Source of the DNA: a virus
Taxonomy: Duplodnaviria > Heunggongvirae > Uroviricota > Caudoviricetes
Length of the DNA stretch: 64,000 nucleotides
Reading direction: 5' to 3' (one strand)
Virus record (IMG/VR): IMGVR_UViG_3300046692_000144
Span: 85,621-149,620 of that record
Every line of letters starts with the position of its first letter. Position 1 is the stretch's first letter. Positions 5,358-57,767 of the stretch are shown piece by piece. Under the pieces are notes generated by a model. It worked only from the letters and a program-made list of their open reading frames with translations. It did no database searches and was not told the origin of the DNA. The translations under genes were made by a program, and so were the position numbers.

Positions 5358-5975
5358 AGAGCCTGCGCGGAACGAGGCCTTGATCTACGTGGCTTGCAGA
5401 GGAGCGTCTAAGCCGTAGACAAAACATGTCTACGCTAAGAGGCCCGTGCTAGAGCCTTTAGACAGAATCTTAGACATCTAGACAAAGTTTTGTCTAAGTC
5501 ATGTCTACGGCTGTAAGCCACGGCCCGTATGGCTTTGAGTGGTGCGCTAGACATTTAGACATGAATTTTCTCCACACAAGCACTAGGGCTCAGAAACCAG
5601 GAAATAAAAAACAAGAAATGGAGACAGTCATATACATACATATATATATTTATATATTTATAACTATATTAATGTACCCATGACATGGCTATGGCTCGTA
5701 GGTAGGGATCACAGAGTTGTTTTTTTATTTGTGTGTTTCCAAGCTCTGGGTGCTCGTGCGGAGAAAATTCATGTCTAAATGTCTAGCGCACCCCTCAAAG
5801 CCATACGGGCCGTGGCTTACAGCCGTAGACATGACTTAGACAAAACTTTGTCTAGATGTCTAAGATTTTGTCTAAAGGCTCTAGCACGGGCTTCTTAGCG
5901 TAGACATGGTTTGTCTACGGTTTAGACATGCCTCTGGAGGCCCCGTATATCAAGCCTTGTAGCCGCGCAGGCTCT
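5358..5975. repeat. Large imperfect palindrome (copy 1) with TAGAC/GTCTA iterons and AT-rich asymmetric core; origin-like
   Basis: Arms of about 255 bp (5358-~5613 vs ~5717-5975) are reverse complements; about 20 TAGAC pentamers; core 5615-5715. Confidence 0.95.
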
Positions 5976-6041
5976 ATATCGCGTGTTTCCGCGTGTATAC
6001 GCAATATTATCGAAATAAAATTCAATAATTCCCATAAGTCT

Positions 6042-6048
6042 GGTATAA
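6042..6048 (+). promoter_or_regulatory. Early-type promoter motif GGTATAA
   Basis: Recurrent motif upstream of plus-strand genes; precedes the Ubl operon. Confidence 0.7.
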
Positions 6049-6116
6049 CTATTGTGTAGCGGGGAACATATCGTTCTTATTGTTACACAACCTTTTAGAC
6101 TATTAGGAGTTTCACC

Positions 6117-6314
6117 ATGGCTATCACTTCGACCAAGATCGTTATCAGCACCACTGGCCAGACCTTCATCGTTCCTGGCGCCAGCACTGCTGAACAGGTC
6201 AAAAACCTGTACGGTTCTTCGGTTCCTGCCATCAACTCGATGGACGCCGACGTAAGCGATGACGGCGAAGTCCGTACCATCACCTTCCGTGCTCGTACCG
6301 GCACCAAAGGCTAA
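6117..6314 (+). CDS. Prokaryotic ubiquitin-like protein (PRTRC protein C-like)
   Basis: 65 aa, ends RARTGTKG, AGGAG SD, first gene of an E2/JAB/E1 operon. Confidence 0.8.
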   Translation: MAITSTKIVISTTGQTFIVPGASTAEQVKNLYGSSVPAINSMDADVSDDGEVRTITFRARTGTKG

Positions 6315-6344
6315 TTCCGAACCCTCGGTCTTAGCTTGATTGAG

Positions 6345-6376
6345 AAAGCCTCCCTAGTGGAGGCTTTTTCTTTTAG
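6345..6376 (+). terminator. Intrinsic terminator after the Ubl gene
   Basis: AAAGCCTCC-CTAGT-GGAGGCTTT plus T-tract. Confidence 0.8.
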
Positions 6377-6393
6377 TCATCTGGAGGATTTTC

Positions 6394-7329
6394 ATGTTTT
6401 CATTTGATGAGAACGGGAACGTTCTAATTGACACTGAGCAGTCTGATGCGATTACTCGTGCGACTAGCAACCGCACAATCTCTGCTCGTGCAACTGCACT
6501 TACCCGTGGGCAGTACGTTCCGATCAACCCAATCACCGCTAGTACTCTGCAACCGTTTCTGACGAGCTTGGGTGAACGTTACAAAGCTGTTTGCAACAAT
6601 CTTCGTGGTGGCGCTTCCAGGATTGCCTACCCACGGAGTCCGTCTGATCTTGACGTAATCAGTAACCGTGCAGTTGCTGACTGGGTGTCCGTAGAACTAC
6701 AAGGGTTTGAAGGGCCTCTGCCTATCCTGGAAGTGGAAGGGGTTCGCACTATTGATTTCTTGCTTCCTGCGGACGGCGCGGTGATTCGTTACCTGGGCCG
6801 ACTGCTACACAACTCGAAAGGGTTGGTCCATGCGGAGATCGTTGTTAACGGGGATCGTCGTCCAAGTGCAGTCCGTACTCTGGACGCCTCGGAAGCGGTT
6901 AACCCTAACGGAGACCACACCATGCGTCTTCGTATTTTCATGCGGTATTCCCATGGAACTTCCGGGCGTTTTGAAAACGCTGTTCCTGATACGTTGGTGG
7001 CTCTTCTGAAGATGATGGATATCGAGGAGGAGTTTCCGGCTCTGCCACGAGTACTGAGAACTCTGTCTCGCAAGCTTCGTAGCACTACTGGCAACTGGGG
7101 TGAAGAACCTCGATTCCCGGTAGTTAACTTTCGAGGCAAGATGGATGGCTACATGAGCAACGGGCGAGTTGAACTCTCTCTCATCCATCACTTGTTTCAT
7201 GGTAACCGTTCTCAGATGTACTCCGACAAGAGTGTCTACGCGGTGATGGACGAAAACATGAAGCAACCACTCCTAGCCACTAAACCAATAACTTCAACTG
7301 GAGCTGCCCAATGGATAACGCCAGCGTAG
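6394..7329 (+). CDS. Hypothetical protein in the Ubl operon
   Basis: 311 aa ORF with GGAGG SD; no family recognised. Confidence 0.75.
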   Translation: MFSFDENGNVLIDTEQSDAITRATSNRTISARATALTRGQYVPINPITASTLQPFLTSLGERYKAVCNNLRGGASRIAYPRSPSDLDVISNRAVADWVSVELQGFEGPLPILEVEGVRTIDFLLPADGAVIRYLGRLLHNSKGLVHAEIVVNGDRRPSAVRTLDASEAVNPNGDHTMRLRIFMRYSHGTSGRFENAVPDTLVALLKMMDIEEEFPALPRVLRTLSRKLRSTTGNWGEEPRFPVVNFRGKMDGYMSNGRVELSLIHHLFHGNRSQMYSDKSVYAVMDENMKQPLLATKPITSTGAAQWITPA

Positions 7330-7799: not shown

Positions 7800-7813
7800 C
7801 TGGGGGAGTTCCT

Positions 7814-7820
7814 GGTATAA
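7814..7820 (+). promoter_or_regulatory. Early-type promoter motif GGTATAA
   Basis: Upstream of the E2 gene. Confidence 0.7.
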
Positions 7821-7858
7821 GCATTATGCAAGAGAAATCTTTAGCAATAGGAGGCTAA

Positions 7859-8545: not shown

Positions 8546-8558
8546 GAGGTCCTGAACA

Positions 8559-9856: not shown

Positions 9857-9861
9857 AGCTT

Positions 9862-9868
9862 GGTATAA
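9862..9868 (+). promoter_or_regulatory. Early-type promoter motif GGTATAA
   Basis: Upstream of the E1 gene. Confidence 0.7.
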
Positions 9869-9922
9869 CTAAGGTAGTGGAGGATACCCTCCCTACCTTT
9901 TGTCTTTTGGAGAGGCTCAGTA

Positions 9923-11235: not shown

Positions 11236-11246
11236 TCTCTCTACGG

Positions 11247-21984: not shown

Positions 21985-22746
21985 ATGAACCAACTTGCTT
22001 TAGCTGTTCAGGCTCCAAACCCGCTCGACATCTTCAACTTCGAAGGTAACGAAGTCCGGACCTCCTTGATAAACGGAGAGCCTTGGTTCGTATGCGCTGA
22101 TGTATGTGCGGCGTTGGATATCGGTAATAATCGAATGGCGATATCTCGACTAGACGAGGAAGACCGGGGCGTAACTACTACTGACACCCCCTCCGGACGG
22201 CAGGAGATGGGGGTAATTAATGAATCAGGTCTTTACTCCCTGATCTTCAAAAGCAGAAAACCAGAAGCTATACGGTTCAAGCGCTGGGTGACTTCTGTTC
22301 TTATCCCTGGAATTCGCAAGAAGGAATTCGTACACGTTTCCGAAGCTCAAGTCCCAGTCAGTGTTCTTACTCAGGTCCTGGCAGCGTTCGAAACCTTGCG
22401 AAGCGACATGGCTGATATCCGTAAGGAGCTTCATGACTCCAGGCCACAAGTACCTGCGATTGCTGCTCCGGTTCTCAGTAAACCTGCTCGTGAACCTGTG
22501 AAAAGCCATCTCTTCTCAACTGCAAAGTTGGCGAACAAGCTAGGGGTTACGGCATCCCGTTTGAACGCAATCTTTGAAGTTCTCGGCTATCACACTCGGG
22601 TAGCCAACCGCTATGCTCCAACCCAGAAAGCTATGAGAATGGCTGAGGTAGTTGGTAAGACCATAGATCGTGGCCAAGGTGCCAGAGACAAGTACCTCTG
22701 GAAAGAAGAGATCATCTCCAAGATTCCAAAGAAATACTACATGTAA
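21985..22746 (+). CDS. Bro-N domain / antirepressor-like DNA-binding protein
   Basis: FNFEGNEVRT..INGEPWFVCADVC..L, INESGLYSLIFKSRKPEA..FKRWV; KilA-C/ANT-like C-terminus. Confidence 0.9.
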   Translation: MNQLALAVQAPNPLDIFNFEGNEVRTSLINGEPWFVCADVCAALDIGNNRMAISRLDEEDRGVTTTDTPSGRQEMGVINESGLYSLIFKSRKPEAIRFKRWVTSVLIPGIRKKEFVHVSEAQVPVSVLTQVLAAFETLRSDMADIRKELHDSRPQVPAIAAPVLSKPAREPVKSHLFSTAKLANKLGVTASRLNAIFEVLGYHTRVANRYAPTQKAMRMAEVVGKTIDRGQGARDKYLWKEEIISKIPKKYYM

Positions 22747-22777
22747 AGTACAACTAGCTCCATTGGAGCGGGTTAAC

Positions 22778-22812
22778 AAAAACCCCAGCCTAGGCCGGGG
22801 TTCTTTTTTAGC
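22778..22812. terminator. Bidirectional intrinsic terminator
   Basis: A-tract, GC stem-loop and T-tract between Bro-N and the tube gene. Confidence 0.8.
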
Positions 22813-22838
22813 TTATGGTACTCAAATCTGAGTACCTT

Positions 22839-23513
22839 TTAAGTAATGCTAACCGGGACAGGTCGGTCATACTGAATCGAAACACCTTCGACGATAACTG
22901 GGGACTGAGCGTTGACCGAGAAGTTGTAGCCTTCGATCATGCAGTATTCCAGGTATACGGCGGTCAGGGTTTTGCCGTAGCCATCAGAGTCACCACCACG
23001 GGTCTTGAACACCAGAAGCAGACCGAAAGGAACTGCGAAGTACTCAGAGTCCAAGTTCATCATGATGCTTGGAGTAGGTGACTCGGCACCGGAAGCTTTC
23101 ATGCCGTCTGTGTTCATCAATGGACGGTAAGCGTTACGGCTCAGAGCGTACAAGATGTTACCGTTGTCAGCCAGCATTCGACCGAACGATATGGAGCTTG
23201 CAGTCTTACCGCGAGTGAAGAACGCACGGTTAGAACCAATCTCGTACAGACGAGCCAGGTTTGCGCTAGCGCCGTATTGGATGCCGTCGGTAAGACCGAT
23301 TGGAACCAAGTCGGAAGTAGAGTTAGACAGGCCGGTATAACGGGCAGGACCTGCGAACATCAAGGTGGTATCTGGGGATGCAGAAAACTGACTGAAACGT
23401 TCGTAACCGTCATCAGCTAGCTTGCTTACATAGTCCCCTTTCCAGTCCCAGCCAGTGCTGAAACCGTAGTCGGCTGTTGAGCCGAGCTGATCGTTTTGCT
23501 TAGTTACAGACAT
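22839..23513 (-). CDS. Tail tube protein
   Basis: 224 aa downstream of the sheath; beta-strand pattern (LYEIGS..., YLEYCMIEGYNFSV). Confidence 0.65.
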   Translation of the reverse strand: MSVTKQNDQLGSTADYGFSTGWDWKGDYVSKLADDGYERFSQFSASPDTTLMFAGPARYTGLSNSTSDLVPIGLTDGIQYGASANLARLYEIGSNRAFFTRGKTASSISFGRMLADNGNILYALSRNAYRPLMNTDGMKASGAESPTPSIMMNLDSEYFAVPFGLLLVFKTRGGDSDGYGKTLTAVYLEYCMIEGYNFSVNAQSPVIVEGVSIQYDRPVPVSIT

Positions 23514-32227: not shown

Positions 32228-32243
32228 TTTGTTCTCTCGGAGA

Positions 32244-40713: not shown

Positions 40714-42012
40714 ATGAATTTCGAAAGATACAAAATTAACTTCGACATCGAAAACGTCCTCCCTACACATCTTCCGTATCTGAGCGAGTTTTATAACTCT
40801 ACTCAAGAATTACGAAATGACGTGAAAGATCTGTTTTCGTTCCCACTGGCTAACAAGGAGGCAATGCCTTTCTACACAATCAGTGGCATAGCTTGTGATG
40901 ATATTGCGACCGTTGCTGAAGACGTCTACGGTGCGATGATCAACGCAGTCGATTACTTGTTTGAAAACCCAGTTCTGATTCCTCAGTTCTACGACTGTGA
41001 AATGCTCCGTTCAAACGAAGGTCTAGCCTTTATAGACTATGCTCAGCACACGTTCCGTCAAAAGAACATGCTGAGCCAAGCTTTGTACGGTAGATTCGAT
41101 ATGGCCATTGATCCGAAGACAGACCGAGTTACTGGAGTCTATGAGTTCAACGGCGATACTCCCGTGATGCTATTCGAGTCCACTGCTTTAGAGAGTGACT
41201 TCGTTCGTCAGATCGATATTACGGGTGAGTCTCAATTCAACGAGTACTACGAACGTATCTCCGAGTCTCTTCGTCAGCATCGACTAGGCCTCTGCGATAA
41301 GTTTGCAATTGTTTTTAACTCCGACTACATCGAGGATATGGCTACTTGCGAAATCCTTACCGAGCTCTTGGGTCAGCACGTAACTGCTTTCATGGTTGAT
41401 ATCAAAGAGCTAGATTACGATCATGCAGGCGGTAGTAAACCTTTCATATACAGTGATATCGTTCTCGATGGCATGTTCGTTCTTTCCCCGTGGGAAGAAA
41501 TGGTGACGGCGTTCCCTGCTGCATTCCTTAACTGGAAGCAATGGGCAGACTCAGTTGTAATCATGGAACCGTCTTGGAGATGGTTCATGTCGAACAAAGG
41601 TGTATGGGCGTTAATGACATGCATGATGTCTGAAGAATCACGTTGGGCTCATGCCTGGAAGGACCTCCCCTTACTCAAGACGTACATGAGCAAAGAACCC
41701 CTTCTCGGCAATCCACAAGTGTCCAAACCTTCTCTTGGTCGCCTATCCTCCAACATCGAATTTCTCGGTGCGGATGGTGAAGTAATCGTATCTAGTGAAG
41801 GGTACTACGGTGACACAGAACGGGTGTATCAAGAACTCTGCCCTGCTGGTAGTGTACGTCAAGGCAAGAACTTCATCGCAGGTGTTTGGATGGCCCCACA
41901 CTGTTCTCGAAACAACCTCTACGCTCGTGCAGGTACTCTGTGCTTCCGAGAGTTTGATAACGAAATCATTGAGACAATGAACGAACGGTTCATTCCTCAT
42001 TTGGTTGTGTAA
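40714..42012 (+). CDS. Glutathionylspermidine synthase-like ATP-grasp ligase (YgiC/YjfC-like)
   Basis: LYGRFD, YEFNGDTP..LFES, ED..T, WEE, EP.W..FMSNKG, SKP.LGR..SNI. Confidence 0.85.
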   Translation: MNFERYKINFDIENVLPTHLPYLSEFYNSTQELRNDVKDLFSFPLANKEAMPFYTISGIACDDIATVAEDVYGAMINAVDYLFENPVLIPQFYDCEMLRSNEGLAFIDYAQHTFRQKNMLSQALYGRFDMAIDPKTDRVTGVYEFNGDTPVMLFESTALESDFVRQIDITGESQFNEYYERISESLRQHRLGLCDKFAIVFNSDYIEDMATCEILTELLGQHVTAFMVDIKELDYDHAGGSKPFIYSDIVLDGMFVLSPWEEMVTAFPAAFLNWKQWADSVVIMEPSWRWFMSNKGVWALMTCMMSEESRWAHAWKDLPLLKTYMSKEPLLGNPQVSKPSLGRLSSNIEFLGADGEVIVSSEGYYGDTERVYQELCPAGSVRQGKNFIAGVWMAPHCSRNNLYARAGTLCFREFDNEIIETMNERFIPHLVV

Positions 42013-42046: not shown

Positions 42047-42831
42047 GATGGAGTCACTCCGCAGCCCGGTGAGGTACCTGGGCGGTACCCAGTACTTTGT
42101 GCAACCTTAACCGAGTTATTAGATACGCCCATGTACTTAGATGAACCCCCTGCATAAGAGTTTGCACTGTTCATTACTCGGGACAAGTAGTCGCCGGAGG
42201 AAATGCCTGTGACGGCGTCAACTGAGTTTGGGTCTCCGAGGTGTGATCGGATAGTAGCCTCAATTGCAGCAGTTTTGTTACCTGGATACTTCTTCAGGAA
42301 TATTTTGTAGTTGGTCTCTAGAATACAAAGACCTGCAAATAAACCCCTCCGAAGTCCATCCGCATCTTGAGTAAACCTAGCCGTAATGGACTCCCCAGGA
42401 TTTACCAGAAGATCCATGGCCTCAGCAACTGACTTGTAGTTGTTCTGTACGTGCCCGAACCCTTTAGGTCCTAGCTGTAATCCCCGGATAAGATAGGCGC
42501 CCATCGTTCCAAGCAAGGATTGAGCTAATCGACCCTGACTCAGATTTGACTGGTTGACCGCCAAGCTTTTACGTGCGTTCTGAGTTACTTGGTGTTGTTC
42601 AAACGATAAGCCGAAGCCTGACGTCGCAGGAACCATTCTGTGAGCAACGTCAACGTTGCCCCAGTTTAGTCCTGCACCCGATTCAGTAGCGATAACACCT
42701 ACGATGATCTTATCTACATCTTGGTATGAACCGAGAATAGAGAAGTTACCCCCAAGCTGAATATCCATTTCAGATTGGAGGGCTTGGCGGAACGCACTTG
42801 AAGAAGTAGGACCTGCTGCTGCACTAGCCAT
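42043..42831 (-). CDS. Possible lytic transglycosylase-like virion protein
   Basis: GVIATESG resembles the SLT catalytic Glu motif; other motifs weak. Confidence 0.4.
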   Translation of the reverse strand: MASAAAGPTSSSAFRQALQSEMDIQLGGNFSILGSYQDVDKIIVGVIATESGAGLNWGNVDVAHRMVPATSGFGLSFEQHQVTQNARKSLAVNQSNLSQGRLAQSLLGTMGAYLIRGLQLGPKGFGHVQNNYKSVAEAMDLLVNPGESITARFTQDADGLRRGLFAGLCILETNYKIFLKKYPGNKTAAIEATIRSHLGDPNSVDAVTGISSGDYLSRVMNSANSYAGGSSKYMGVSNNSVKVAQSTGYRPGTSPGCGVTPS

Positions 42832-44651
42832 TAATACTCCCCAGGATTGCCTTGGCCAAAGTCTCGGCCCATTACATACGGAGTGATAGGATCAGTATCA
42901 TGGATTTTCGAAGAAGATCCAATAGCAGCCGATTCCTGGATGGTGGAGCGGATCTTGTTGAAGGCCAGTTTAGAGATCCAGTTAGGGTCAAGAAGCTTAG
43001 CCGACTGAAGACCTGGGACCAACGGAGTCACTTTCAAACCTGAAGTCGTTGCATGGATAGAGCTGATCCCACGCATTGCCAAGCTATCAACGTGGTTCTG
43101 AGTCAGGTAGGTACCAGGTACTTCTTCCAGAACGCCGTGTGACAGAGTACGTCCAACTGCGCTGTGGATTGGAACTGCTTCACTGTTCTTTGCCAGCTCA
43201 TCTTGGATCTGGTTAACGTCTATCTCTTGTCCCGGCAGGAACCCGGTTTCACCAGGATCGTTTACCTTGACGTATTTGATGAGGTTACGAGCAATCAAAT
43301 CAAAGTGACGAGTATCCAGACCTGAGCCGTAGATATCACGGAGTTTGTTAGCCATGTACAGACGACCCGCACCAACCCCTTTCAAGGATACGAGCTTACG
43401 AGGGTTGACTGTACCGGTAGACATCTGATCACCGGCCTTCATTTCCTGACCTTTCTTAACCGTCAAGTCCTGCTCTCGGCTTACGAAGTGAGGTACGCCA
43501 TTGACGTAGATCTCATGGTCTTTCAGTGCTGTCTGACGAATCTCAGATACAGTACCATTCAACTTGGAAATTGTAGCCTCATCCTGGAAGTTATCCGCAG
43601 GGTTGTTCAGAAGGTTACTTGCCTCTTCATACGCATTTCGCTTTTTACCCGCAACACCACCGGAGTGCTTAGTACCCAGCATCGCTTGGGTGAGACGTTC
43701 GGACACAGATTGAGATGCGATAACACCTACGTTAGTACCGATGGTAACGAGATGACCGTCTGAAGCTTGACCGTAGCATTTCTGGCATACGCCTTTCTTC
43801 GCTTCGCAAGTCATGGTGTTACGAACTTTCACCTGTTTATGGCTTTGCTCAAGTTCACGTTGATACGTTTCGTCAATGAACTTGTTAGTTCCTGCTTCGT
43901 ATCGACCGATCAAAGCCTTCCGATCAGTTGATGGAGTCATCACACCGTTCACGGTATGGCAGTCAGGGACCGTCACAACCTCGTGGTAGACGTTCGGAGT
44001 CAGCTTCTTAAACAGGGCACCGGGTAGAGACGTAGATAGCTGTGCGGCTACGGTAGAGGCTCGACCGGCGTAAGACATCGCCAAGTACTCGCCAGGAGTA
44101 AGTCCCTCAGCAAAGGAGTGCATCACCGCGATTGGTACCGGCATACCCCGTACGTCTGCCGCCATGAGTGGAGAGGATGTACCCCAAGCCAACTGAGACG
44201 GGTTACCACGAGCACCAGTAGCAGCCATCTTCGCTGCGGTAGAGCCTCGGCTGGCCAAGTAGTTGATGTTCTGCTTACTGATCTTGCCCGACATATCTGC
44301 GGCAAGAGTAGACAGGGCATTCGACTTCTCCTGAGTCGAAACCTTGCTTTTTAGAATCTCTGCAACCTTGTGCTCGAACTCCCCCAGCAAAGCAGCTCGC
44401 TCGCTGGAATCGTTGATGTAGTCAGAGAGAGGAGTCGAAGCCCCGATCTCAGTGGCCTTGCCAAAGAACAGTCGAGCGAGATCGTTGATGACTTCGAAGT
44501 CAGAATCTTCGTTCTTGATGAGTAGCTGAATAAGTCCTTGCACCCCACCCTTATCTAGGACGCGGTGTAGATCGTACTTCTCCCGAGCACCTACAGGAAG
44601 CATGTGCTTGATCATTACTGAGCCGGGAGTTGTGTATTTTTGGTCTGCCAT
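42831..44651 (-). CDS. rpoC: RNA polymerase beta-prime, C-terminal piece
   Basis: EGLT..EY..MSYAGR bridge helix, Zn site (CHT..CEAKKGVCQKCYG), SQSVSERLTQAMLGTKHSGG trigger loop. Confidence 0.85.
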   Translation of the reverse strand: MADQKYTTPGSVMIKHMLPVGAREKYDLHRVLDKGGVQGLIQLLIKNEDSDFEVINDLARLFFGKATEIGASTPLSDYINDSSERAALLGEFEHKVAEILKSKVSTQEKSNALSTLAADMSGKISKQNINYLASRGSTAAKMAATGARGNPSQLAWGTSSPLMAADVRGMPVPIAVMHSFAEGLTPGEYLAMSYAGRASTVAAQLSTSLPGALFKKLTPNVYHEVVTVPDCHTVNGVMTPSTDRKALIGRYEAGTNKFIDETYQRELEQSHKQVKVRNTMTCEAKKGVCQKCYGQASDGHLVTIGTNVGVIASQSVSERLTQAMLGTKHSGGVAGKKRNAYEEASNLLNNPADNFQDEATISKLNGTVSEIRQTALKDHEIYVNGVPHFVSREQDLTVKKGQEMKAGDQMSTGTVNPRKLVSLKGVGAGRLYMANKLRDIYGSGLDTRHFDLIARNLIKYVKVNDPGETGFLPGQEIDVNQIQDELAKNSEAVPIHSAVGRTLSHGVLEEVPGTYLTQNHVDSLAMRGISSIHATTSGLKVTPLVPGLQSAKLLDPNWISKLAFNKIRSTIQESAAIGSSSKIHDTDPITPYVMGRDFGQGNPGEY

Positions 44652-46175: not shown

Positions 46176-46580
46176 ATGCTGAAAGTTGCAATGCCTGCTG
46201 GGAAATACGGAGAAGCACTTCAACGCTGTATGGAGGATGTCGTAGAGAACATGCGAGGAGATCTGTCTGCTCATGCAGAGGGCGTTCGTATGTACCCAGA
46301 AGACATCTCGGAGTGTACCGTCTGGGTAGAGCAACTTTGGGATCAAATCCACGATCTCCGAAATGCGGCGTCATTCTCCCTGAGTAACCTTGTTGATCTC
46401 GGAGAGTCCTACGACCTCTCCCCTGAAGACCCTCTGATGGTGGTGACGAAGAACGCACTACTGCTTGAGTTCGTGGATATCGAAATCGGACTGAATAAAA
46501 GAAACCCTATCAGCATTGTCCTAGGGTATATCCTGTTCAATCCGAATTTCCCAGATGGTGGACCCAGAGTCTACCACTGA
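46176..46580 (+). CDS. Hypothetical acidic protein
   Basis: ATG 46176 with AAGGGA SD inside the track ORF 46131..46580. Confidence 0.65.
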   Translation: MLKVAMPAGKYGEALQRCMEDVVENMRGDLSAHAEGVRMYPEDISECTVWVEQLWDQIHDLRNAASFSLSNLVDLGESYDLSPEDPLMVVTKNALLLEFVDIEIGLNKRNPISIVLGYILFNPNFPDGGPRVYH

Positions 46581-47822
46581 GAGATATTCAAGGCCCTGAC
46601 ACTGTCGGGGCTTTTCTTTTAGTCTGCGTAGGGTTTTGCGATCAAAGTAGTGACGACCAGGGTTCACATTCATGTGCTTCAAGAACCCCGCAGCAGAGAA
46701 ATCACCTACGGTGAACTCCGGCCAGTCTAGACTCGTCTTCATCAGCATGACCCCCGACGTAACCATCAATCTGTGAATAGGCTTTATCCCGTATTCACTC
46801 CAACAGTCTATGGCTACCCCTTCTTTAACCCGGAACCCTGCTATAGGCTTACCACGAAGAATCAAATGGTAATCACCGGAGTATTCCTCCAGAGGGTACG
46901 ATGGACTTAGGTCAGGACAGGTGGCTGGGGAAAGTATCTTTCGAATCTTGGCCATCGTGTATTCTTTGTTCAGGTCCCAGTCAGACTCATAGACATGGAA
47001 CAAACGATACCCGGCCTGTCGTGCCTTCATGGTTTTGTTCTGGTGATACTCCGCAGCCTTTCCCACCTGCTCAGAGTGCCAAAAGATACCATTGAACTCG
47101 AAGGCAACCCGCTCAGCAGGAAGGGCTACATCTAGCTCTAAAGGCGGTATGATCTTACGAGAGTTTCTGACAATATCGAATCCCAATCCGTGAATGAAGT
47201 CTGCTAACTCGTTCTCCGGGGACGATCCGTTTGGTCTGCATTTTGGGCAACCACGTCCATGCACATGATCAGATGCCACGACAGTAAATGCTCCGTGAGT
47301 AGGGCACACTACGTCAATGTCATCTGACATGAATCGAAGAGATACCTCCGCATATCCGTAGGAGGAACCGTGACGTTCTACGGCGGAATCAAAGAAGTCT
47401 TGGTACATAACGCTTTGGGCATACCTGTTCTTCACTCTACCGCAAGAAGGGCAGCCACGTTTCTCCTGTATGTGTTTTACGGCTAAGGTACTGAACTCAC
47501 CGTGTATAGGGCAGAGGATGTCTATCTTACTCCTAGAAGAAACGTACACCGTTTTAGAGTAATCGTAAAAATCTTCATGAGCTTCGGTTGCTCTTCGAAT
47601 GAACTCCTCCTGAGTTATTCCAGAAACTCTGCCCTGGTTACTACGCCCACAGGAAGGACACCCTCTCCCACGCATATGGTGGTCGGGTGCCTGTAGGAAA
47701 TCTCCGTGCTGAGGACAACCAATCACTACCTTAGATTTGCTGGTAGTAACTTCCGACTTTGAATAGTCGTATCGGTGGCCATGTCTCAGAATTGACTTTG
47801 TTTCAAATTCAGAATGATCCAT
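46521..47822 (-). CDS. Zinc-ribbon repeat plus Vsr/DUF559-like endonuclease (homing-endonuclease-like)
   Basis: Three CPxHG.F....H...GCPxC repeats, then LELDV...VAFEFNGIFWHS. Confidence 0.8.
   Translation of the reverse strand: MDHSEFETKSILRHGHRYDYSKSEVTTSKSKVVIGCPQHGDFLQAPDHHMRGRGCPSCGRSNQGRVSGITQEEFIRRATEAHEDFYDYSKTVYVSSRSKIDILCPIHGEFSTLAVKHIQEKRGCPSCGRVKNRYAQSVMYQDFFDSAVERHGSSYGYAEVSLRFMSDDIDVVCPTHGAFTVVASDHVHGRGCPKCRPNGSSPENELADFIHGLGFDIVRNSRKIIPPLELDVALPAERVAFEFNGIFWHSEQVGKAAEYHQNKTMKARQAGYRLFHVYESDWDLNKEYTMAKIRKILSPATCPDLSPSYPLEEYSGDYHLILRGKPIAGFRVKEGVAIDCWSEYGIKPIHRLMVTSGVMLMKTSLDWPEFTVGDFSAAGFLKHMNVNPGRHYFDRKTLRRLKEKPRQCQGLEYLSVVDSGSTIWEIRIEQDIP
46591..46623 (+). terminator. Intrinsic terminator (near-inverted copy of the 49281/49882 terminators)
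   Basis: GGCCCTGAC-ACT-GTCGGGGC plus TTTTCTTTTAGT. Confidence 0.75.
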
Positions 47823-49265: not shown

Positions 49266-49280
49266 GCACTAAGCACTAAG
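49253..49280. repeat. Tandem heptamer (CACTAAG)x4
   Basis: Four exact copies across the stop codon of 48672..49265. Confidence 0.95.
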
Positions 49281-49320
49281 TAACAAAGAAAAGCCCCGAC
49301 TTCTGTCAGGGCTTTTTAGC
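49281..49320. terminator. Intrinsic terminator, identical to 49882-49921
   Basis: 40 nt exact direct repeat. Confidence 0.85.
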
Positions 49321-49428: not shown

Positions 49429-49884
49429 ATGAACAAATATAGCCAAGAAGTACAAAACATCCTGCGTACATTCTTCATGGAACTGAACGCAAACCGTTCT
49501 GCAATGGCGAACATGGGCCAATCCCTGAGTGCCGAACTGGACGCTGAAGTTAAAACCCCTGAGGTGTTCCTCAAGGAAATCTTGAGTACCGTAAAAACGT
49601 TAACTTCGGTTACTTCCAAAGTTGCTCACGGGCTGCAAGAGCTTAATATGGACTTGCAGGATGCAGGCGAGCTGTGTGACGTCATGGAGTGGGATGAAGA
49701 TCTCTGTGCAAAACTCGACGACGATCTGGTAGCCACTCGTAATGAGTACCTGTTGTTCAAGGAAGACCTGGAATCCGGGTACAAAGAAAATTACGGAAAA
49801 GATGCTGATCCCCTCATGGTGTACTTGACCGAAACCGGGAAACTTGAATACTTCTTCGAGCTACTCAGTAACCCGGAAGCGTAA
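49429..49884 (+). CDS. Hypothetical acidic helical protein, possible distant paralog 3
   Basis: Same promoter/leader/terminator cassette as 48672. Confidence 0.7.
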   Translation: MNKYSQEVQNILRTFFMELNANRSAMANMGQSLSAELDAEVKTPEVFLKEILSTVKTLTSVTSKVAHGLQELNMDLQDAGELCDVMEWDEDLCAKLDDDLVATRNEYLLFKEDLESGYKENYGKDADPLMVYLTETGKLEYFFELLSNPEA

Positions 49885-49921
49885 CAAAGAAAAGCCCCGA
49901 CTTCTGTCAGGGCTTTTTAGC
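49882..49921. terminator. Bidirectional intrinsic terminator
   Basis: Identical to 49281-49320; lies between convergent genes. Confidence 0.85.
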
Positions 49922-49925: not shown

Positions 49926-51077
49926 TCATTTTTTAAGTGAGATGGTGATCGGTGTATTCTCGTCCACCGTACCCGCCTTGAGTGCTGCAAGGACGTGCTC
50001 TTCACTTTCAAAGTGCTGGGGCTTTTTGTCCATATCCGCTTCAGTCAAGTGAACCGAACCAAGGATAGCTTCGTGGCCAGGTGCAATCAGAGATTCCCCG
50101 TAACCCATACGGGCGTCGTAGATCTGCTTCGAAGGCATGAGCTTATCTCGTGCTTCTTTAACCGCAGCAGGACCCATAGGCAAGAACAAGGACAATGCGT
50201 CACCGTCGTAGTCCCCTGCGAACATTGGTAGGTGCAGAGGGTTTACACCAATGGAGTTACCTTCAACCGGAACTGGGAAGAACGCCGAGATGTTGGACTT
50301 CATCAGAGTAGGGTTACGGTTGGCAATGATCGGAACTTCTTTGATGATCTTACCGAATGAAGAAGTAGCCGAATCGTTTCGCTCACTGTACGCCTTCTCA
50401 GCGTTCATGTACGAGTGACCTTGACGGGTCATATCTCGAATGACGTGAAATTTGTACATGGACCAAAGTGTATCTTTCGGAATCGCCATCTCGTTGAAGC
50501 CAAGACGTGGTTCAGCATAGATAGTGCCTCGACCCGAGAAGTCCTGTTTCTTACTCAAAATCTTGCTGTGGAAGAGACCCGCCTTTGGCGAACCTTTACC
50601 AGCAATCTGAACCAGCAACCCTTTTAGATCACGGCCACGAGAGTTAGGGGAGATAGGGTCACCCAAACCAACAACTGCTTTCAGACCGTTGTACATCTCC
50701 TTCCGAGCATTGACCAGCATAGTAGATTCGTCCGGCAAAACGCCTTTCAAACCTTTGAAGGTCTCGTTTGAAACGATGTGGTCACGGTAGAGCTGGTTGA
50801 CGTCAGAGTATTCAAGACGGCCTCCGCCCTGAACCATCATAGGACGAGTAACGGGAGGAACCACTGCTACGTTGCGAACAACGTAGGCTTGGTCCGGGGT
50901 AACGCCCATTTTCTTAAGGCCCGCAAGATACTTGATCTTCTTAATGGCCTTGTCTCTTTTAGCTACCGAAGTAGCATGCACTGCTTCATGTGAGTTGTCT
51001 TTCAAACTCTGGTCAATGTTGATTGCACCAAGGAGGGCCTCAAAGGCCGCTCCCCCCATCAGTACTGGTTCTGTCAC
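49926..51077 (-). CDS. rpoC: RNA polymerase beta-prime, catalytic middle piece
   Basis: VAVVPPVTRP, SKKQDFSGR, NRNPTL, catalytic FAGDYDGD. Confidence 0.9.
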   Translation of the reverse strand: MTEPVLMGGAAFEALLGAINIDQSLKDNSHEAVHATSVAKRDKAIKKIKYLAGLKKMGVTPDQAYVVRNVAVVPPVTRPMMVQGGGRLEYSDVNQLYRDHIVSNETFKGLKGVLPDESTMLVNARKEMYNGLKAVVGLGDPISPNSRGRDLKGLLVQIAGKGSPKAGLFHSKILSKKQDFSGRGTIYAEPRLGFNEMAIPKDTLWSMYKFHVIRDMTRQGHSYMNAEKAYSERNDSATSSFGKIIKEVPIIANRNPTLMKSNISAFFPVPVEGNSIGVNPLHLPMFAGDYDGDALSLFLPMGPAAVKEARDKLMPSKQIYDARMGYGESLIAPGHEAILGSVHLTEADMDKKPQHFESEEHVLAALKAGTVDENTPITISLKK

Positions 51078-54000
51078 ATCGTCACCTTCTTAATCACCTT
51101 ACTGTCGTCACCATGGGTAACAAGATGGAACTCTTTGTCCCCTACCTTTTTCAGACCGAGTTCACCAGAAGCGAGCTTGTCGAATTCAGTAGATGTTAGA
51201 CCTGTAAGGTGCTTAACCGCGTTCTCGAAGACTGGGTTTACGACAGGCTCTGCAAGCTTGTAGTGTCCCCACTTCTGACCACGAATACCACCAGTGATAC
51301 TCATGTCGAACAGACCGCCTTCTTCTGGCTCCATGTTCTTGGCAGCAACGAAGTCAGCGTTCTTGATCTCACCGTTGCTCATCTCAAGTATGTCTTTGTC
51401 CATGAGAGGAGAGGCAGTGATGTGTTCGCTATCCACGTTTACCTTGACGCCAGAACCATGCAGGTAGTCGATGAACTTCTTAGTAGCAAAGGTAGTGTCC
51501 GGCTTAGGCAGAGGCTGACCGCGCAGAAACTTTGTCCAGTACTCCGAGTTTTCTTGAGACTTGGAAGTACCGATTTCTTGCAGGTTGTGGTTTGCACCTG
51601 AGCCCAGCAGACCGAGGAACTCCATGTAACCAACAGACTTCGAACCTTCGTGACCACCCTTGGTAGGTTGGAGTACGTTGTCGTAGCCACCCACGTTACG
51701 AGCCGACAAGTTCTGGTCAGTAGTCTTATAGAGTTTCATCATGTACTGAGGACCGGCCAGGACTTTTGGATAAGTCTTGCCATTCTCAGGATCTACTACT
51801 TCATCCGTGTCGCTCAACCCATGCGCTTTCAGTTCGTCAGTCAACTCTTGAACGTTGGAGTTCTTCGAGAAGTTGTGAACTAGGTACGGAGAACCTTTCT
51901 TACGAGCAATCTTCGCCGCAGCTACTTCCATCAACTGACCAAGGTTTACCCGGCTGGTTACAGAGGCAGGGTTGAGCAAGAGATCGTATGGCTTACCGGT
52001 TTCTTTGTTGTATGGCATTTTCTCATCTGGCAGGATAAGAGACACGATACCTTTGTTACCATGCATACCAGTCAGCTTGTCACCGATTTCCAGTTGCTTA
52101 ACTGCACGAAGAATTACACGAATCTCTTTGGCATCGACGTGACGGTCAACTACCTCAGCAGGGTCATCGTAGCCCCACAGATCTGCGTTAACACGGTAAG
52201 GGTTAACCAGTGTCTTATGTAGACGTCCAAGCATACGGTCTTCAGCCGTCGGCTCTCTTTTTTCAAGTACCGCATACACCGGGTCTCCGTGTTTCAAGAT
52301 AGAGCCCACGGTTGCAACGCCTTGTTCATCCAAGTGGCTCAGTTGTTCTGCTGTGAACTTACCTGGGAAGTAACGTTTAAGCAATGATTTACGAGGAACG
52401 GAGTACTCCATGATGTTGTAATCGACTTTGTATGCGTGATGGCTAGACAAGCTATCAGAGGCAGTCTGGGAGATTACCAATCCGTCTTCGTGGTTGAAGC
52501 CCTTGTAAGGGATGTAGGCGACGTCCAGGTTCCTACCTAGGGCAAGGACACCATTCTTAGTGTAGTTGTTCTCAGCGACGATCTGGCCTGCCTTCACGGC
52601 CTCACCAACCGCAACGTGAGGAGCCTCGTCATCCAGGAAACCTTTCATGTTGAACGGAAGGTTCTTAACAAGGTTCACTTTGTGGACGGTTCCGGTGCTG
52701 CTCTCAATATGAACTTCAGTAGGGGTGATCTTGCGAATAGTGCCGTCTACTGGGGATTTCGTACTGAACACATTAGCGATAGACTTCACAAAGGAAGTGC
52801 CGCTACCGGTAGCAGTCTGAACCAAAGGCTCTTCACGATTAACCAAAGACAGCGCCTGAGGAATAGCCTTACCAGCCATGGTCAGACGACCCGGGTGGTT
52901 ACTGTTCAGGAACGGTACAAGGTTAGTAGTTACGGTGTACAGGCTGTTACCACTTGCAAACCAATACTGTACCTTGCTCCGATCAACTTCAGAAAGTACG
53001 CCATGGTCTTGGGCCTGAACTCTGGCCTTGCCCTCTTGGTTTGGGAAGCCAACGACCGAGGTCATCAAATCGTGAACAGAGAGAGTGTGCTTCCCACCCT
53101 TGTTATCTACGACCGTCGAGTAAAGAGTTCCGTAATCGTCGCGATGAGCAGAAATTGTAAAGCGTAGATCAACACCAGCGTGATCAGACTCAGGAGTACG
53201 ACTAGGGTCAAGAATCCCAGTATGAGACGCATCGATATTTCGAGCAGATTTAGGAACGGCTCGAATATTGGAAATACCACCTTCTTGAGCGCCAAGAACC
53301 GTAACCTTGCCCACGTTCTCAATCGATTCGATAGCATTGGTTTCCTCCGGGGTGGATACCAGGGTGGATTTCAGGATGTAGTCTTGGTAGATCTTGTTGA
53401 ACGGCTTGGCAGGAATCACCTTACGGATCTTCGGATCAGCGTGGTCTACACGTTCAAGGTTGAAACCAAGTTTGTTCTTAACCTTAGTAACACTTTCGTG
53501 CTCACGGCCAGTTTCAAAACGACGAGCCAGGAAGTCTGGAAGGTTCTGTACACGCTTGAACTGAAGGCTATCCCGGTTATCTTCCTCACGATCACCACGA
53601 CGTACTGCAACCATGTTGGCCATAGCACGCAACAGGGTCTCATGGGTGATGTTCGAAAAAGGTTTACCAAGAGTGATCTCAGTAGATTTCGCAGAAAGAG
53701 TGGAGCCCGCAAACGCTTCCTGCAAGGCAACGATCATGTCTTCGTACGACAGGGTTTTATCCTGTTTGAACTTGGAAGTCAGTTGACCATACAAAGTCTT
53801 GATTGCTTTCTGTTCTTGTCCTTTTGCAGCCGCAACGTTTCGCTCCCACAATTCTTCCGGGAGGTACTGAAGAATCTCCTTAGGCGAAATGTGAAAGATC
53901 TGCGTGAAGATCGGGGCTACCAGTACACGAGAGGTGGACTTATCCGCATTCAGATAAATCAACTCGTGCTCCGGGTCAAGAGTCAGCGAGAAGCTACGGC

Positions 54001-54430
54001 CTTTCTGGGTGTTGAAGTGAGCCTCCAGTTCTCCGTTTTCCTTGGTGCGAGTAAACACACCAGGACTCAGTTGGAGCTGGTTGGCAACAATGTAGTTGTT
54101 ACCCTTGTAGAGCATCGTGTGCTTCCCAGTAAGGAAGAACGAGTCCATCAAAGGGAAGTCCTTCTCCTTATCGACTACTGCACCAGTGGCCTTATGGATC
54201 ATGGTCAAAGTACCCTTGATAGGGTACGTCAACGATTTGGAACGGAGGATTGCATCCTTCTCATCCTTCTGGTCGAACTCCTTACGGTCCACATGCACAT
54301 CACTCAGGTGAAGCTGATAGTGCTTGTTCTCGATAGGGAAGTGAGACGTCAGCCCATTTACGAGAGCTGCGTCTGCCTTATCATTGATCGACCGTGGATC
54401 AGAGAAAATCGGGTATGGGGTATTCGGCAT
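51074..54430 (-). CDS. rpoB: RNA polymerase beta subunit fused to the beta-prime N-terminal segment
   Basis: RTPES, PFLNSNHPGRLTM, GFNHEDG, GDKLTGMHGNKG, NPASV.SRVNLGQ; then beta-prime-like SNGEI..EGGLFD..GHYKLAEPV. Confidence 0.9.
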   Translation of the reverse strand: MPNTPYPIFSDPRSINDKADAALVNGLTSHFPIENKHYQLHLSDVHVDRKEFDQKDEKDAILRSKSLTYPIKGTLTMIHKATGAVVDKEKDFPLMDSFFLTGKHTMLYKGNNYIVANQLQLSPGVFTRTKENGELEAHFNTQKGRSFSLTLDPEHELIYLNADKSTSRVLVAPIFTQIFHISPKEILQYLPEELWERNVAAAKGQEQKAIKTLYGQLTSKFKQDKTLSYEDMIVALQEAFAGSTLSAKSTEITLGKPFSNITHETLLRAMANMVAVRRGDREEDNRDSLQFKRVQNLPDFLARRFETGREHESVTKVKNKLGFNLERVDHADPKIRKVIPAKPFNKIYQDYILKSTLVSTPEETNAIESIENVGKVTVLGAQEGGISNIRAVPKSARNIDASHTGILDPSRTPESDHAGVDLRFTISAHRDDYGTLYSTVVDNKGGKHTLSVHDLMTSVVGFPNQEGKARVQAQDHGVLSEVDRSKVQYWFASGNSLYTVTTNLVPFLNSNHPGRLTMAGKAIPQALSLVNREEPLVQTATGSGTSFVKSIANVFSTKSPVDGTIRKITPTEVHIESSTGTVHKVNLVKNLPFNMKGFLDDEAPHVAVGEAVKAGQIVAENNYTKNGVLALGRNLDVAYIPYKGFNHEDGLVISQTASDSLSSHHAYKVDYNIMEYSVPRKSLLKRYFPGKFTAEQLSHLDEQGVATVGSILKHGDPVYAVLEKREPTAEDRMLGRLHKTLVNPYRVNADLWGYDDPAEVVDRHVDAKEIRVILRAVKQLEIGDKLTGMHGNKGIVSLILPDEKMPYNKETGKPYDLLLNPASVTSRVNLGQLMEVAAAKIARKKGSPYLVHNFSKNSNVQELTDELKAHGLSDTDEVVDPENGKTYPKVLAGPQYMMKLYKTTDQNLSARNVGGYDNVLQPTKGGHEGSKSVGYMEFLGLLGSGANHNLQEIGTSKSQENSEYWTKFLRGQPLPKPDTTFATKKFIDYLHGSGVKVNVDSEHITASPLMDKDILEMSNGEIKNADFVAAKNMEPEEGGLFDMSITGGIRGQKWGHYKLAEPVVNPVFENAVKHLTGLTSTEFDKLASGELGLKKVGDKEFHLVTHGDDSKVIKKVTM

Positions 54431-54432
54431 GG

Positions 54433-54708: not shown

Positions 54709-56471
54709 TGGTCTTCACCCTGTGGCTTTTCGGATTTTCCAGAGGCCTGCTGACCTGGGCTTCCGCCCTCTTGTCCAGGAGCCTGACCTTGCTGTGCAGC
54801 AATAGCGTTTGCACCTGCGACCTGAATACCCTCAAGCAAAGCACGGATCTTGATGGACATTGCAGGATCTTCTACATCCATCATGCTCAACTGAAGCTCA
54901 ACTTCTTGAGGGTCCATGGCCATGAATTCCATCGCCTGAGTAATACAGGTACGCATGAACTCAGCTTGCTCCGAAGAAGTCTCGGCATTACGAGTAGAGA
55001 TTTTACGAGCAGCAGTCGTAGTAGCCTCACCAGTTTCGATCTGAATTTCGACAGCCATAACTGCACGGTCGATAGCTTCTTTCTTCTGGTTAGCCATCTC
55101 CTCGTCATAGTCCTCACCGATACTATCGAAGAACTTACGCATCGACATCTTGCCCTGAGTAGCCAGGTTGGCAAACATCTGCTGCATAGTAGTGTCATCG
55201 ATCAGCTTGAATTCTTTCAAGGTAACCTTCGCAGGCTCTAGACTCAGATACTGAGACATCTTACCGAACATCCACTCTAGGAGAGAGTTCAGTTGAGCCA
55301 CGTAGGCATCCATGCTGTTTTCCATCAGTCGAAGACCGACAGTAGACGAAGTCCAGTTAGTAGTACCGCTAAGCAACTCACGAGAAACGCCAAGACTCAG
55401 AAGCATCGTTTCTTCAGCCTGCTGGATCTCCTGGTTTACAAGAAGAGCACGGCCTTCGCCAGTAATAGTCCCGTAACCGATAGGGCCAGGAGCAACCACG
55501 ATGTGAGCACCGTCACGCTTGTGCTTCTTAAGTGCCGCCTCCATATTCCCACGGAAGTTACGCATACTCATGCTAACGGATGGATCTGCGGAACCGTTTG
55601 GAAGAGGGTACACGACACGCAATGGGTGCAGGAACTCGGTAGCAATCGATTCGTTAGCCTTGCGCAGAGTCTGTTGATAGAACACAAGACCGAACAAGGA
55701 GATCAGCGGAGGTACTGCAATACCGTTAAGACTGTGGGTAGTCAGTGACGGGGCCTTCAGGTGATAGATACCATCATCATCGAATTTGTAATCTTGGTTC
55801 GACTTAACTGCCTCGATGAACGACCACGGCGTAGACGAAAGGAAAAGCATATCGCCATCAGCAATCTTCCGACGAATCTCATTCGGGATAGAGTAGTAGT
55901 ACTCAGAGCGACCGGTGATCGGATTGTTGTTCACGATGATGTTCAGAGCATCCCACTGGATGATGTTCATATCGCGGATGTCCATAGACTTACGATCGAT
56001 ACGCTGGAAGACACCATTGTGGTTGCAATGAGGGCAAACACCTAGGAACTCGTATTTCTTGAACTTAACAAACCCAGCCTTACGCATCGGGTAGTCAGTC
56101 TCGCACGCAGTACACCGAAGTACGCGAGTGATGGGGTAGTAGATCGAGATGAAGACGTTACCCAGCGTGTGGTAGCCAAACCCAATTTCTTGGAGGTTCT
56201 GGCGGAGACGCAGGCACTTGAATACTTCTTTGTATTTCTCAGTAGTAGTCTTTTCTTTCGAATCAACGACAAAGTCAGTGATCGGATAGGACGACAGCTT
56301 CCTGATTACCTCAGTGGTAGTCGGGGACTGAGTGGTGATGTACTTCGACCAACGAATGACGTCGTGTAGGTTCCTTGGCAGGAACTGGTTGGCAACAGTG
56401 AACCACGGGCTAGGAGTCTGCCCGGCATTCATAGTATTGCCGAAGGAGGGATTTAGGTAATCAGTGCTCAT
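54705..56471 (-). CDS. Portal protein with zinc-finger insert
   Basis: 588 aa; LGNVF, IYHLK..GIAVPPL, coiled-coil and acidic tail; CTAC...CPHC. Confidence 0.7.
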   Translation of the reverse strand: MSTDYLNPSFGNTMNAGQTPSPWFTVANQFLPRNLHDVIRWSKYITTQSPTTTEVIRKLSSYPITDFVVDSKEKTTTEKYKEVFKCLRLRQNLQEIGFGYHTLGNVFISIYYPITRVLRCTACETDYPMRKAGFVKFKKYEFLGVCPHCNHNGVFQRIDRKSMDIRDMNIIQWDALNIIVNNNPITGRSEYYYSIPNEIRRKIADGDMLFLSSTPWSFIEAVKSNQDYKFDDDGIYHLKAPSLTTHSLNGIAVPPLISLFGLVFYQQTLRKANESIATEFLHPLRVVYPLPNGSADPSVSMSMRNFRGNMEAALKKHKRDGAHIVVAPGPIGYGTITGEGRALLVNQEIQQAEETMLLSLGVSRELLSGTTNWTSSTVGLRLMENSMDAYVAQLNSLLEWMFGKMSQYLSLEPAKVTLKEFKLIDDTTMQQMFANLATQGKMSMRKFFDSIGEDYDEEMANQKKEAIDRAVMAVEIQIETGEATTTAARKISTRNAETSSEQAEFMRTCITQAMEFMAMDPQEVELQLSMMDVEDPAMSIKIRALLEGIQVAGANAIAAQQGQAPGQEGGSPGQQASGKSEKPQGEDQ

Positions 56472-56546
56472 TTAGAAGAAGTGTCCTTGATTGATCTCGA
56501 TTTTAACGGAAAGAAGCCAAGTACTCAATAGCACATATACGTCCCT

Positions 56547-56553
56547 GGTATAA
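56547..56553 (+). promoter_or_regulatory. Early-type promoter motif GGTATAA
   Basis: Upstream of 56604. Confidence 0.7.
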
Positions 56554-56603
56554 GAGTAGTGCAAGAGAATACTTAACCGCCGACCTTTGGAGCTATAACA
56601 ATT

Positions 56604-57149
56604 ATGGGAGCAGCGGCAAAATCTGGTGATGGGGGGAATAAGGAGTTGGAAGACCTTATCCATCAGCTATCCGACAGGGTCGTGGGGAAGATGATTGTTG
56701 TAAACGGCAAGACGGGTGAACGTTCCCAGATGGTGTCCTTTGATTTTGATGCTCGGGATTCCATCGAAGTAATGTTCGAAGGCGTTCCTCCAGTGGAGGG
56801 GGAGGAAGAAATCTTCACTTATAGCTTTCCGAAAGAATCTGACAATGCTGAGGCTGATCTAGAAATGGCTAGAGATGGATATCGTAAGGGCGGAAACTCC
56901 TCAGCAGAGACTCTGGAGGCTGCCTTAGGCGAGGCGCTTCGGGAAAGCGATCTCGAAAACAGGGAACCTACGTACGAGGATTTCCTTATCAACATTGACA
57001 TTCATTTTGAGGACCTGAGCCAACCAGAGAAAAATAAAGCCATGATCCATGACCTTGATGACTTGCTGGACCTGTACGAAAGCCTCGGTTACTCCGAGGA
57101 GGAAAAGAAGAAGACTAAGAAAGGCTTCTTCTCAAAGATGTTCTCTTAG
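56604..57149 (+). CDS. Hypothetical acidic protein
   Basis: 181 aa followed by a TTCG hairpin. Confidence 0.65.
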   Translation: MGAAAKSGDGGNKELEDLIHQLSDRVVGKMIVVNGKTGERSQMVSFDFDARDSIEVMFEGVPPVEGEEEIFTYSFPKESDNAEADLEMARDGYRKGGNSSAETLEAALGEALRESDLENREPTYEDFLINIDIHFEDLSQPEKNKAMIHDLDDLLDLYESLGYSEEEKKKTKKGFFSKMFS

Positions 57150-57162
57150 GCAAATAGACATG

Positions 57163-57182
57163 CCGGACCCTTCGGGGTCCGG
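57163..57182 (+). terminator. GC hairpin with TTCG loop (terminator-like, weak T-tract)
   Basis: CCGGACCC-TTCG-GGGTCCGG. Confidence 0.55.
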
Positions 57183-57767
57183 TTCTAGACAAAACTAGAC
57201 AAAGTCATGTCTACGCTGAGAGGCCCGTCCTAGAGCCTTCTAGACAAAATTTAGACATTTCCAAAAGTTCACGTCTAAGGCATGTCTACGGCTGCAGCCC
57301 AGGTGGGCCGTGGCTTCCAGCCTTTTTTAGACAAAAAGACATGAATTTTCCCCGCACGAGCACCCAGAGCTTGGAAACACGGAAATAAAAAAACAACTCT
57401 GTGATCCGTACCTACGAGCCATAGCCATGTCATGGGTACATTAATATAGTTATAAATATATAAATATATATATGTATGTATATGACTGTCTCCATTTCTG
57501 TTTTTATTTAGTGGAGAATCTGAGCCCCAGTGCTTGTGCCAGGAAAATTCATGTCTAAATGTCTAGCGCACCACTCAAAGCCATACGGGACGTGGCTTAC
57601 AGCCGTAGACATGACTTAGACAAAACTTTTCAGAAATGTCTTAGATTCTGTCTAACCGCTCTAGTCCGGGCCTCTTAGCCTAGACATGGTTTGTCTACGG
57701 CTTAGACATTCCTCTGAAGGCCGCGTAGATCAAGGCCTCGTTCCGCGCGGTGTCTAGATCAATGGTT
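57183..57767. repeat. Large imperfect palindrome (copy 2), inverted relative to 5358-5975
   Basis: Core 57398-57498 is the reverse complement of 5615-5715 at 100/101; TAGAC-rich arms are diverged. Confidence 0.95.

Follow-up and report, generated by a model that had tools for sequence, protein, structure and literature searches.

The oriL and oriS origins of herpes simplex virus (HSV) are palindromic, with an AT centre between inverted boxes, and are present in three copies per genome, some of which are inverted relative to each other. The lambda origin, with its O protein, and the origin of Staphylococcus aureus pathogenicity islands (SaPI), in which two sets of iterons surround an AT-rich region, contain phased and partly dyad-symmetric boxes, while the large lytic phage T4 uses several origins (oriA, oriE, oriF and oriG) and then turns to recombination-dependent replication. 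To our knowledge, sequence-related origins that are repeated at regular intervals are known from large DNA viruses of eukaryotes and not from tailed phages. The homologous regions (hrs) of baculoviruses behave as origins and enhancers in transient assays (PMC4535591). Here, we describe a set of dispersed palindromic modules in a tailed phage, starting from a window of 64,000 nucleotides that spans positions 85621–149620 of the 165,460-bp virus record IMGVR_UViG_3300046692_000144, which has a 127-bp terminal overlap. Each module consists of two mirrored arms of ∼250 bp around a 100-bp centre and contains about 20 boxes reading TAGACA or TGTCTA. We propose, at a probability of roughly one half, that the modules are multiple replication origins that are kept alike by recombination.

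The modules resemble baculovirus hrs in being dispersed imperfect palindromes within a large double-stranded DNA virus genome (circular in the case of hrs), alike within a genome and diverged between genomes. Unlike the phage module, in which box arrays surround one AT centre to form a single large palindrome known from sequence alone, the hrs of these insect viruses are tandem palindromes of ∼30 bp that are bound by IE-1. With HSV oriL and oriS, the modules share the palindrome, the AT centre, the inverted boxes and a copy number of three with some copies inverted. Isomerization of HSV, however, arises from kilobase-scale inverted repeats and its binding protein, UL9, is known, whereas the modules are ∼600 bp in length and no isomers have been seen. 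As in iteron origins, helically phased, dyad-symmetric boxes flank an AT-rich stretch, but in lambda and SaPI a single origin lies within or next to the initiator gene, while the present modules number three to five per genome and have no recognizable initiator. The T4 origins differ in that they are unrelated to one another in sequence and are R-loop sites composed of a promoter and an unwinding element, with no repeated arrays of palindromic boxes. Lastly, inverted repeats bracket a segment of DNA as in the Gin, Hin and Cin systems, but those have short crossover sites, a dedicated serine recombinase and a flipped segment of a few kilobases, while neither a recombinase match nor a second orientation was found here.

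Copies and architecture of the modules

The present genome (G000) contains three modules, with A at genome positions 22528–23131, outside the window, and B and C at window positions 5337–5995 and 57183–57776, respectively (Table 1). A preliminary description of the window had reported two inverted copies of a palindrome, one with its core at 5615–5715 and the other at 57183–57767, and a repeat finder confirmed the pair. The arms of B (5342–5583 and 5750–5991, 242 nt) are 89% complementary to each other, and B matches C in inverted orientation along two stretches, 5608–5785 with 57328–57505 (178 nt, 95% complementary) and 5337–5594 with 57519–57776 (258 nt, 88%). The 101-bp centre of B differs from the reverse complement of that of C by one substitution, and the left arm of C is diverged, with 73–81% identity to the other arms compared to 86–93% among the rest; both points had been described correctly. 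The count of two copies was too low, since a search of the whole record found the third module, A, which is oriented like C and whose centre is lengthened by a 15-bp insertion. There is no fourth cluster, as no other 500-bp bin of the genome holds at least four TAGACA or TGTCTA hexamers. The genome contains 127 of these hexamers, 53 of them within the three modules (about 1.9 kb), and elsewhere the density of the box is what chance would give. Gaps between the modules measure 68.5, 51.8 and 45.1 kb. When folded as single strands, B reaches −275 kcal/mol (z = −31) and C reaches −131 kcal/mol (z = −14).

The arms each carry ∼10 boxes in a conserved order, several of which form TAGACA-N5/6-TGTCTA dyads, and the sixth base of the box is A in 104 of 109 cases. 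The spacing between boxes peaks at 8, 10–13, 21, 31, and 43–45 bp, mostly near multiples of the helical turn. A second type of dyad, GGC-N5-GCC, is also present, with six of the 31 in the genome falling in module arms. Between the arms, the AT centres are the segments of lowest duplex stability genome-wide (ranks 1–3 when segments of 40, 60 or 100 bp are scored), with a free energy over 40 bp of about −34 kcal/mol compared to a genome mean of −55.6 (standard deviation 3.3) and a next-best value of −42.7. The modules display two sequence features of an iteron origin, namely a cluster of boxes that is enriched only there and an adjoining AT-rich unwinding element.

Two types of arm can be told apart, each of which travels with the polarity of the centre, so it is the whole module, and not the centre alone, that is inverted in B relative to A and C. 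Module B is the best palindrome of the three because its second arm has been converted to the type of the first. Rfam searches with all three modules returned chance-level matches only. A 21-codon reading frame that starts in the centre of B was considered as a gene and rejected, since the frame is lost in G001 (IMGVR_UViG_3300041407_000207), a 116-kb fragment from a relative.

Conservation, exchange and polarity among relatives

G001 was reached through the gene for the large terminase, terL (90% identical), and is collinear, in reverse, with genome positions 41.9–151.4 kb, a span of ∼110 kb that includes both modules. Its modules lie at the loci of B and C, and their centres are the two least stable segments there (ranks 1 and 2). 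Modules are found at the same loci in four relatives. Contig L035 bridges the locus of A and contains, in order, a gene for a ribbon-helix-helix protein, a small gene with a terminator, a palindrome (203-nt arms, TAGACA boxes, AT centre) and a polymerase gene, so that this arrangement is common to G000 and L035, while contig L037 ends in a box array downstream of the ribbon-helix-helix gene. The order of terL, module B and the genes of the ubiquitin-like (Ubl) operon is found in G000, G001 and contig L039 (terL 77% identical), the last of which bridges the locus with box dyads around an AT centre and without long palindromy. Six contigs from closer relatives (terL 81–91%) all stop 90–340 bp upstream of terL, and wherever the upstream sequence suffices, the stops coincide with the outermost boxes. 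The ends thus mark a module that breaks short-read assemblies. A similar pattern is seen in four public rhizosphere runs, where contigs over window positions 4300–7300 represent the phage at about 64–790× and break inside the arms.

An alignment of six complete modules from three genomes shows where conservation lies. Within it, 77% of box columns are invariant compared to 34% of other columns, and the AT tract is nearly invariant, while coding DNA between these genomes is ∼70–80% identical. At this level of comparison, the TAGACA boxes and the AT tract can be seen to be under selection, and the parts conserved over the long term are the boxes and the meltable centre, with long palindromy kept in only part of the clade. 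The preliminary description had offered two explanations for the near-identity of the centres of B and C, of which strict sequence-specific selection finds no support for the whole centre in the comparison between genomes, where only ∼45 nt of the AT tract align, at 84%. Homogenization by recombination, the other explanation, is supported. Whole modules are 89–92% identical within G000 and 88% within G001, while modules at the same locus in different genomes are 74–87% identical, and modules at different loci in different genomes are no less alike than those at the same locus (88% for B and 87% for A, each compared to module A of L035). That paralogues are closer than orthologues indicates concerted evolution, in which the copies exchange sequence.

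The closest cultured phage by terL (52% identity) is Salmonella phage Arash (OQ632216.1, 180.8 kb), which grows on Salmonella Typhimurium and in whose virions RNA polymerase subunits and a sigma factor were detected (Arash description paper). At 138.4 kb, Arash has a palindrome with 51-nt arms around an AT stretch, and a search of the record with this region gave five copies of ∼200 bp, all in the same orientation and 88–97% identical to the query copy (Table 1). The centre is invariant over ∼120 bp and flanked by GTTACAA-type dyads, and each of the three copies examined contains the least stable segment of its own 50-kb stretch. The gaps between copies are 33.8–39.7 kb, and a largest gap this small would arise by random placement with a probability of ∼1e-4. 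Dispersed palindromic copies that evolve together, a trait of baculovirus hrs, are thus found in G000 (three), G001 (two or more) and Arash (five). Arash has no module directly upstream of terL, and no palindrome was found beside terL in a relative whose terL is 53% identical. A DNA search with module B against 50,697 phage records gave no match, and exact-pattern scans of viral contigs with the centre and with one arm pattern found nothing. A broader arm pattern recovered only G001 among viral contigs and nothing in 185,579 prokaryote genomes. The five modules are not mentioned in the Arash description paper, and no account of such modules in phages came up in searches of the literature.

Polarity is a further point of difference between G000 and G001. 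The two modules of G001 share one polarity although the genomes are collinear, placing C in reverse relative to its counterpart in G000. Judged from this comparison, one module has flipped since the two genomes diverged. Since polarity is free at a fixed locus, this argues for a function that is independent of direction.

This freedom of single modules must be separated from inversion of the DNA between them. B and C had been suggested to bracket an invertible segment, where a crossover between the two centres would flip ∼52 kb and give two functional genome isomers. There is substrate for such an event, in that 178 nt are repeated at 95% identity in inverted orientation and the copies do exchange sequence. 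Phage recombination could exploit homology of this kind. Physically, a crossover between B and C could happen, but there is no sign of its use. Searches with Phage_integrase and Resolvase models, run on all six frames of the complete genome and with positive controls, gave no match to a tyrosine or serine recombinase. The comparison of synteny that had been called for shows a single orientation, with G001 unchanged in order and orientation over 110 kb across both modules, and all five bridged junctions in relatives (G001, L035 and L039) are parental. The distribution of a promoter-like box, TGGTATAA, points the same way. All 32 occurrences in G000 are on the plus strand, divided 13, 8 and 11 among the three segments between modules. 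In G001, 17 of 18 boxes follow the same one-strand rule, as do nine of nine in the 100 kb of Arash that were examined, always antiparallel to terL. An inversion fixed between any inverted pair would break this rule, which holds on both sides of the modules, and its uniformity indicates that large inversions are not being fixed. In Arash, all five copies are direct, and in G000, A and C are direct repeats, between which the same recombination would delete 45 kb. The sole opposite-strand joint in the contigs of the rhizosphere runs belongs to a 68-kb segment from A to B with inverted ends, which is neutral on the question of isomers. We regard an invertible segment as scarcely credible, though rare recombinant isomers may exist, and annotation of the inverted B/C pair as one is not supported.

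A possible role in replication

It is possible to sketch how the modules would work as origins. The TAGACA boxes would bind a sequence-specific protein, and proteins assembled on both arms would stress and open the AT tract. Each module would then provide one of several origins at which the primase, helicases and split family-A polymerase encoded by the phage would act. The shared sequence would let the copies recombine, leaving the centres near-identical and occasionally flipping a module, and the inverted relation of B and C would be a by-product of free polarity, not a device for a 52-kb inversion. Origin function fits the data because it would account for the unwinding element, the selection on boxes, the lack of dependence on direction, the placement of A ahead of the polymerase genes, the even intervals and the exchange between copies. 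Twin origins had been raised in the preliminary description as a second possibility, and this came nearer the mark than inversion, with the corrections that there are three modules here and five in the cultured relative and that origin function is what we infer.

Several observations weigh against origin function. No Rep-type or other origin-binding family was found among ∼70 proteins scanned, although the Rep_3 and lambda-O models were not run genome-wide. The initiator candidates that are left are a 947-aa primase with an uncharacterized C-terminal half and the ribbon-helix-helix (Arc-like) protein encoded beside A (117 aa, genome 21653–22006). The latter aligns to AmrZ of Pseudomonas aeruginosa (PDB 3QOQ, E = 1.8e-8), and its DNA-reading beta strand has the same Lys-Val-Arg. 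AmrZ, a dimer of dimers, reads two GGC half-sites that are five base pairs apart (PMC3325190). Because the strand is shared with this GGC-reading protein, the ribbon-helix-helix protein is predicted to prefer GGC-N5-GCC over TAGACA, which weakens it as a candidate for binding the boxes and means that the sole DNA-binding gene adjoining a module is predicted to read the wrong motif. Furthermore, GC skew shows no change of polarity at the modules, the depth of the run contigs is flat per contig and cannot show a gradient, and the evenness of spacing in G000 is only suggestive (P about 0.06). An array of dyad sites that lies between a terminator and a promoter would be compatible with operators as well. 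Family scans of other proteins flanking the modules (65, 181, 112 and 184 aa, among others) gave no match. The ribbon-helix-helix protein may represent a host global regulator of which the phage carries a copy, and its likeness to AmrZ hints at a Pseudomonas-like host.

The last of the points against origin function leads to a rival explanation, in which a phage transcription factor controls when the neighbouring polymerase, terminase and Ubl operons are expressed, with the arrays as its operators, enhancers or insulators and the AT centre as a bend or a promoter. Module A lies between a terminator and an early-type promoter, B lies beside such a promoter and the divergent terL, the gene for the AmrZ-like regulator adjoins A, and a GGC-N5-GCC dyad is found in every arm. 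Sigma-70-like matches in the centre are weak, but would agree with a promoter, and baculovirus hrs show that one element can be both enhancer and origin (PMC4535591). We consider such a regulatory role unlikely. Polarity flips at a fixed locus, and the gene contexts of the modules are both divergent and co-directional, with no TGGTATAA box between C and the next gene. Operators would not be expected to show the even spacing seen in Arash, the box falls to chance density beyond the modules, and the extreme instability of the centre has been selected in three lineages.

The spacing in Arash would also be at home with sites for handling the genome, such as periodic anchors for compaction, segregation, stepwise entry or packaging, of which centromere-like arrays bound by ribbon-helix-helix proteins are an example. 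One copy adjoins terL, the ribbon-helix-helix protein matches phage families annotated, perhaps wrongly, as partition proteins, and the early-type promoter boxes all run one way, which hints at directional genome entry. Such a role is improbable in our view, as Arash lacks a copy at terL, an extreme unwinding element would have no evident purpose, and no ParA-type ATPase (AAA_31) matched in the genome, in a search of which CbiA/ParA PF01656 was not part. The build of the modules, with long inverted repeats, multiple copies in both orientations and no coding content, also recalls a selfish foldback or MITE-like (miniature inverted-repeat transposable) element, in which case a non-autonomous transposon bounded by long terminal inverted repeats would have spread to three sites. 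We give this very little credence. Relatives at about 70–80% nucleotide identity carry modules at these three loci, selection acts on the internal boxes and AT tract, inspection of the module ends by eye showed no target-site duplication, no transposase was found among the genes scanned, and the pattern is absent from the prokaryote genomes that were searched.

Returning to origin function, a broader and more tentative proposal is that phages of a 165–190-kb family with a virion-packaged multisubunit RNA polymerase carry three to five evenly spaced, mutually homogenizing origin modules, as the phage counterpart of baculovirus hrs and herpesvirus oriS/oriL, with exchange that flips polarity and yields low-level isomers where copies are inverted. 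We treat this extension as possible. Should origin function hold, the modules would reveal how fast replication is organized in large phages, and would explain why short-read assemblies break at fixed places in the clade.

Neighbouring genes and other features

Table 1. Positions of module parts and adjoining features, in window coordinates unless an accession is given.
Feature	Position	Strand or orientation	Remarks
terL (large terminase)	3449–5146	−	divergent from B
B arm, 5′ side of centre	5337–5594		∼10 TAGAC/GTCTA boxes, several as TAGACA-N5/6-TGTCTA dyads
B centre, asymmetric, 101 bp	5615–5715	+	near-pure AT tract at ∼5629–5674
B second arm	5750–5995		88–89% complementary to first arm; converted to first arm's type
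Early-type promoter box, TGGTATAAC at 6041–6049	6017–6056	+	just outside B, reads into Ubl operon
C short, diverged arm	57183–57363		arm type common with A, 94% identical to A's
C centre	57398–57498	−	reverse complement of B centre with one substitution; contains AT tract
C long arm	57519–57776		88% complementary to B 5337–5594
GGC-N5-GCC dyad, one per arm	5509–5519; partners 5814–5824, 57312–57322, 57594–57604		candidate site for AmrZ-like ribbon-helix-helix protein
GC-rich hairpin ending upstream 181-aa gene	57163–57182		directly abuts C
Arash analogous modules, ∼200 bp	OQ632216.1: 26628–26867, 66375–66601, 100131–100341, 138419–138719, 173252–173454	direct	

Module A sits in a 1.4-kb gene-free gap, with the ribbon-helix-helix gene on one side and the split family-A polymerase genes on the other, where a gene for a uracil-DNA glycosylase (UDG)-exonuclease is followed by one for the polymerase domain. 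The replication region also includes the primase. Modules B and C had been said to bracket the Ubl operon, most head and tail genes and the RNA polymerase, and this stands in part. The Ubl/JAB/E1 genes, a head protease gene and three RNA polymerase subunit genes do lie between them, while terL and about 27 kb of adjoining minus-strand genes, a block that is structural by comparison with Arash, lie outside.

The TGGTATAA box is found 13–130 nt upstream of most plus-strand genes, with no fixed −35 element, and its positions in the window include 6041, 9861, 17130, 21930, 40053 and 62893. As judged from its placement, it is likely to mark a class of promoters of the extended −10 type that serves all early or middle genes. 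An 11-mer, GAGCTCCTGAG, occurs three times in the genome (window 5273–5284; genome 23198 and 59065) compared to ∼0.04 expected per strand. Two of its copies, located ∼60–130 bp beyond the edges of A and B, face the polymerase and terL genes, and relatives have a similar box upstream of terL. The 11-mer is possibly a promoter or leader element.

Genes for RNA polymerase subunits occupy window positions 42831–44651, 49926–51077 and 51074–54430. Among them lies a gene for an HNH or homing endonuclease (46521–47822, minus strand). At 49280–49320 and 49881–49921, a terminator-like hairpin of 41 nt occurs in two identical copies that are 601 bp apart and flank a 151-aa gene. Direct repeats of 33–84 nt (65–87% identical) are found at 31814–33192, inside and between two adjacent late genes, which suggests that the encoded proteins contain repeated segments. 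Finally, a glutathionylspermidine synthase-like gene (40714–42012, plus strand; PHROG E = 5e-91) lies between blocks of minus-strand genes.

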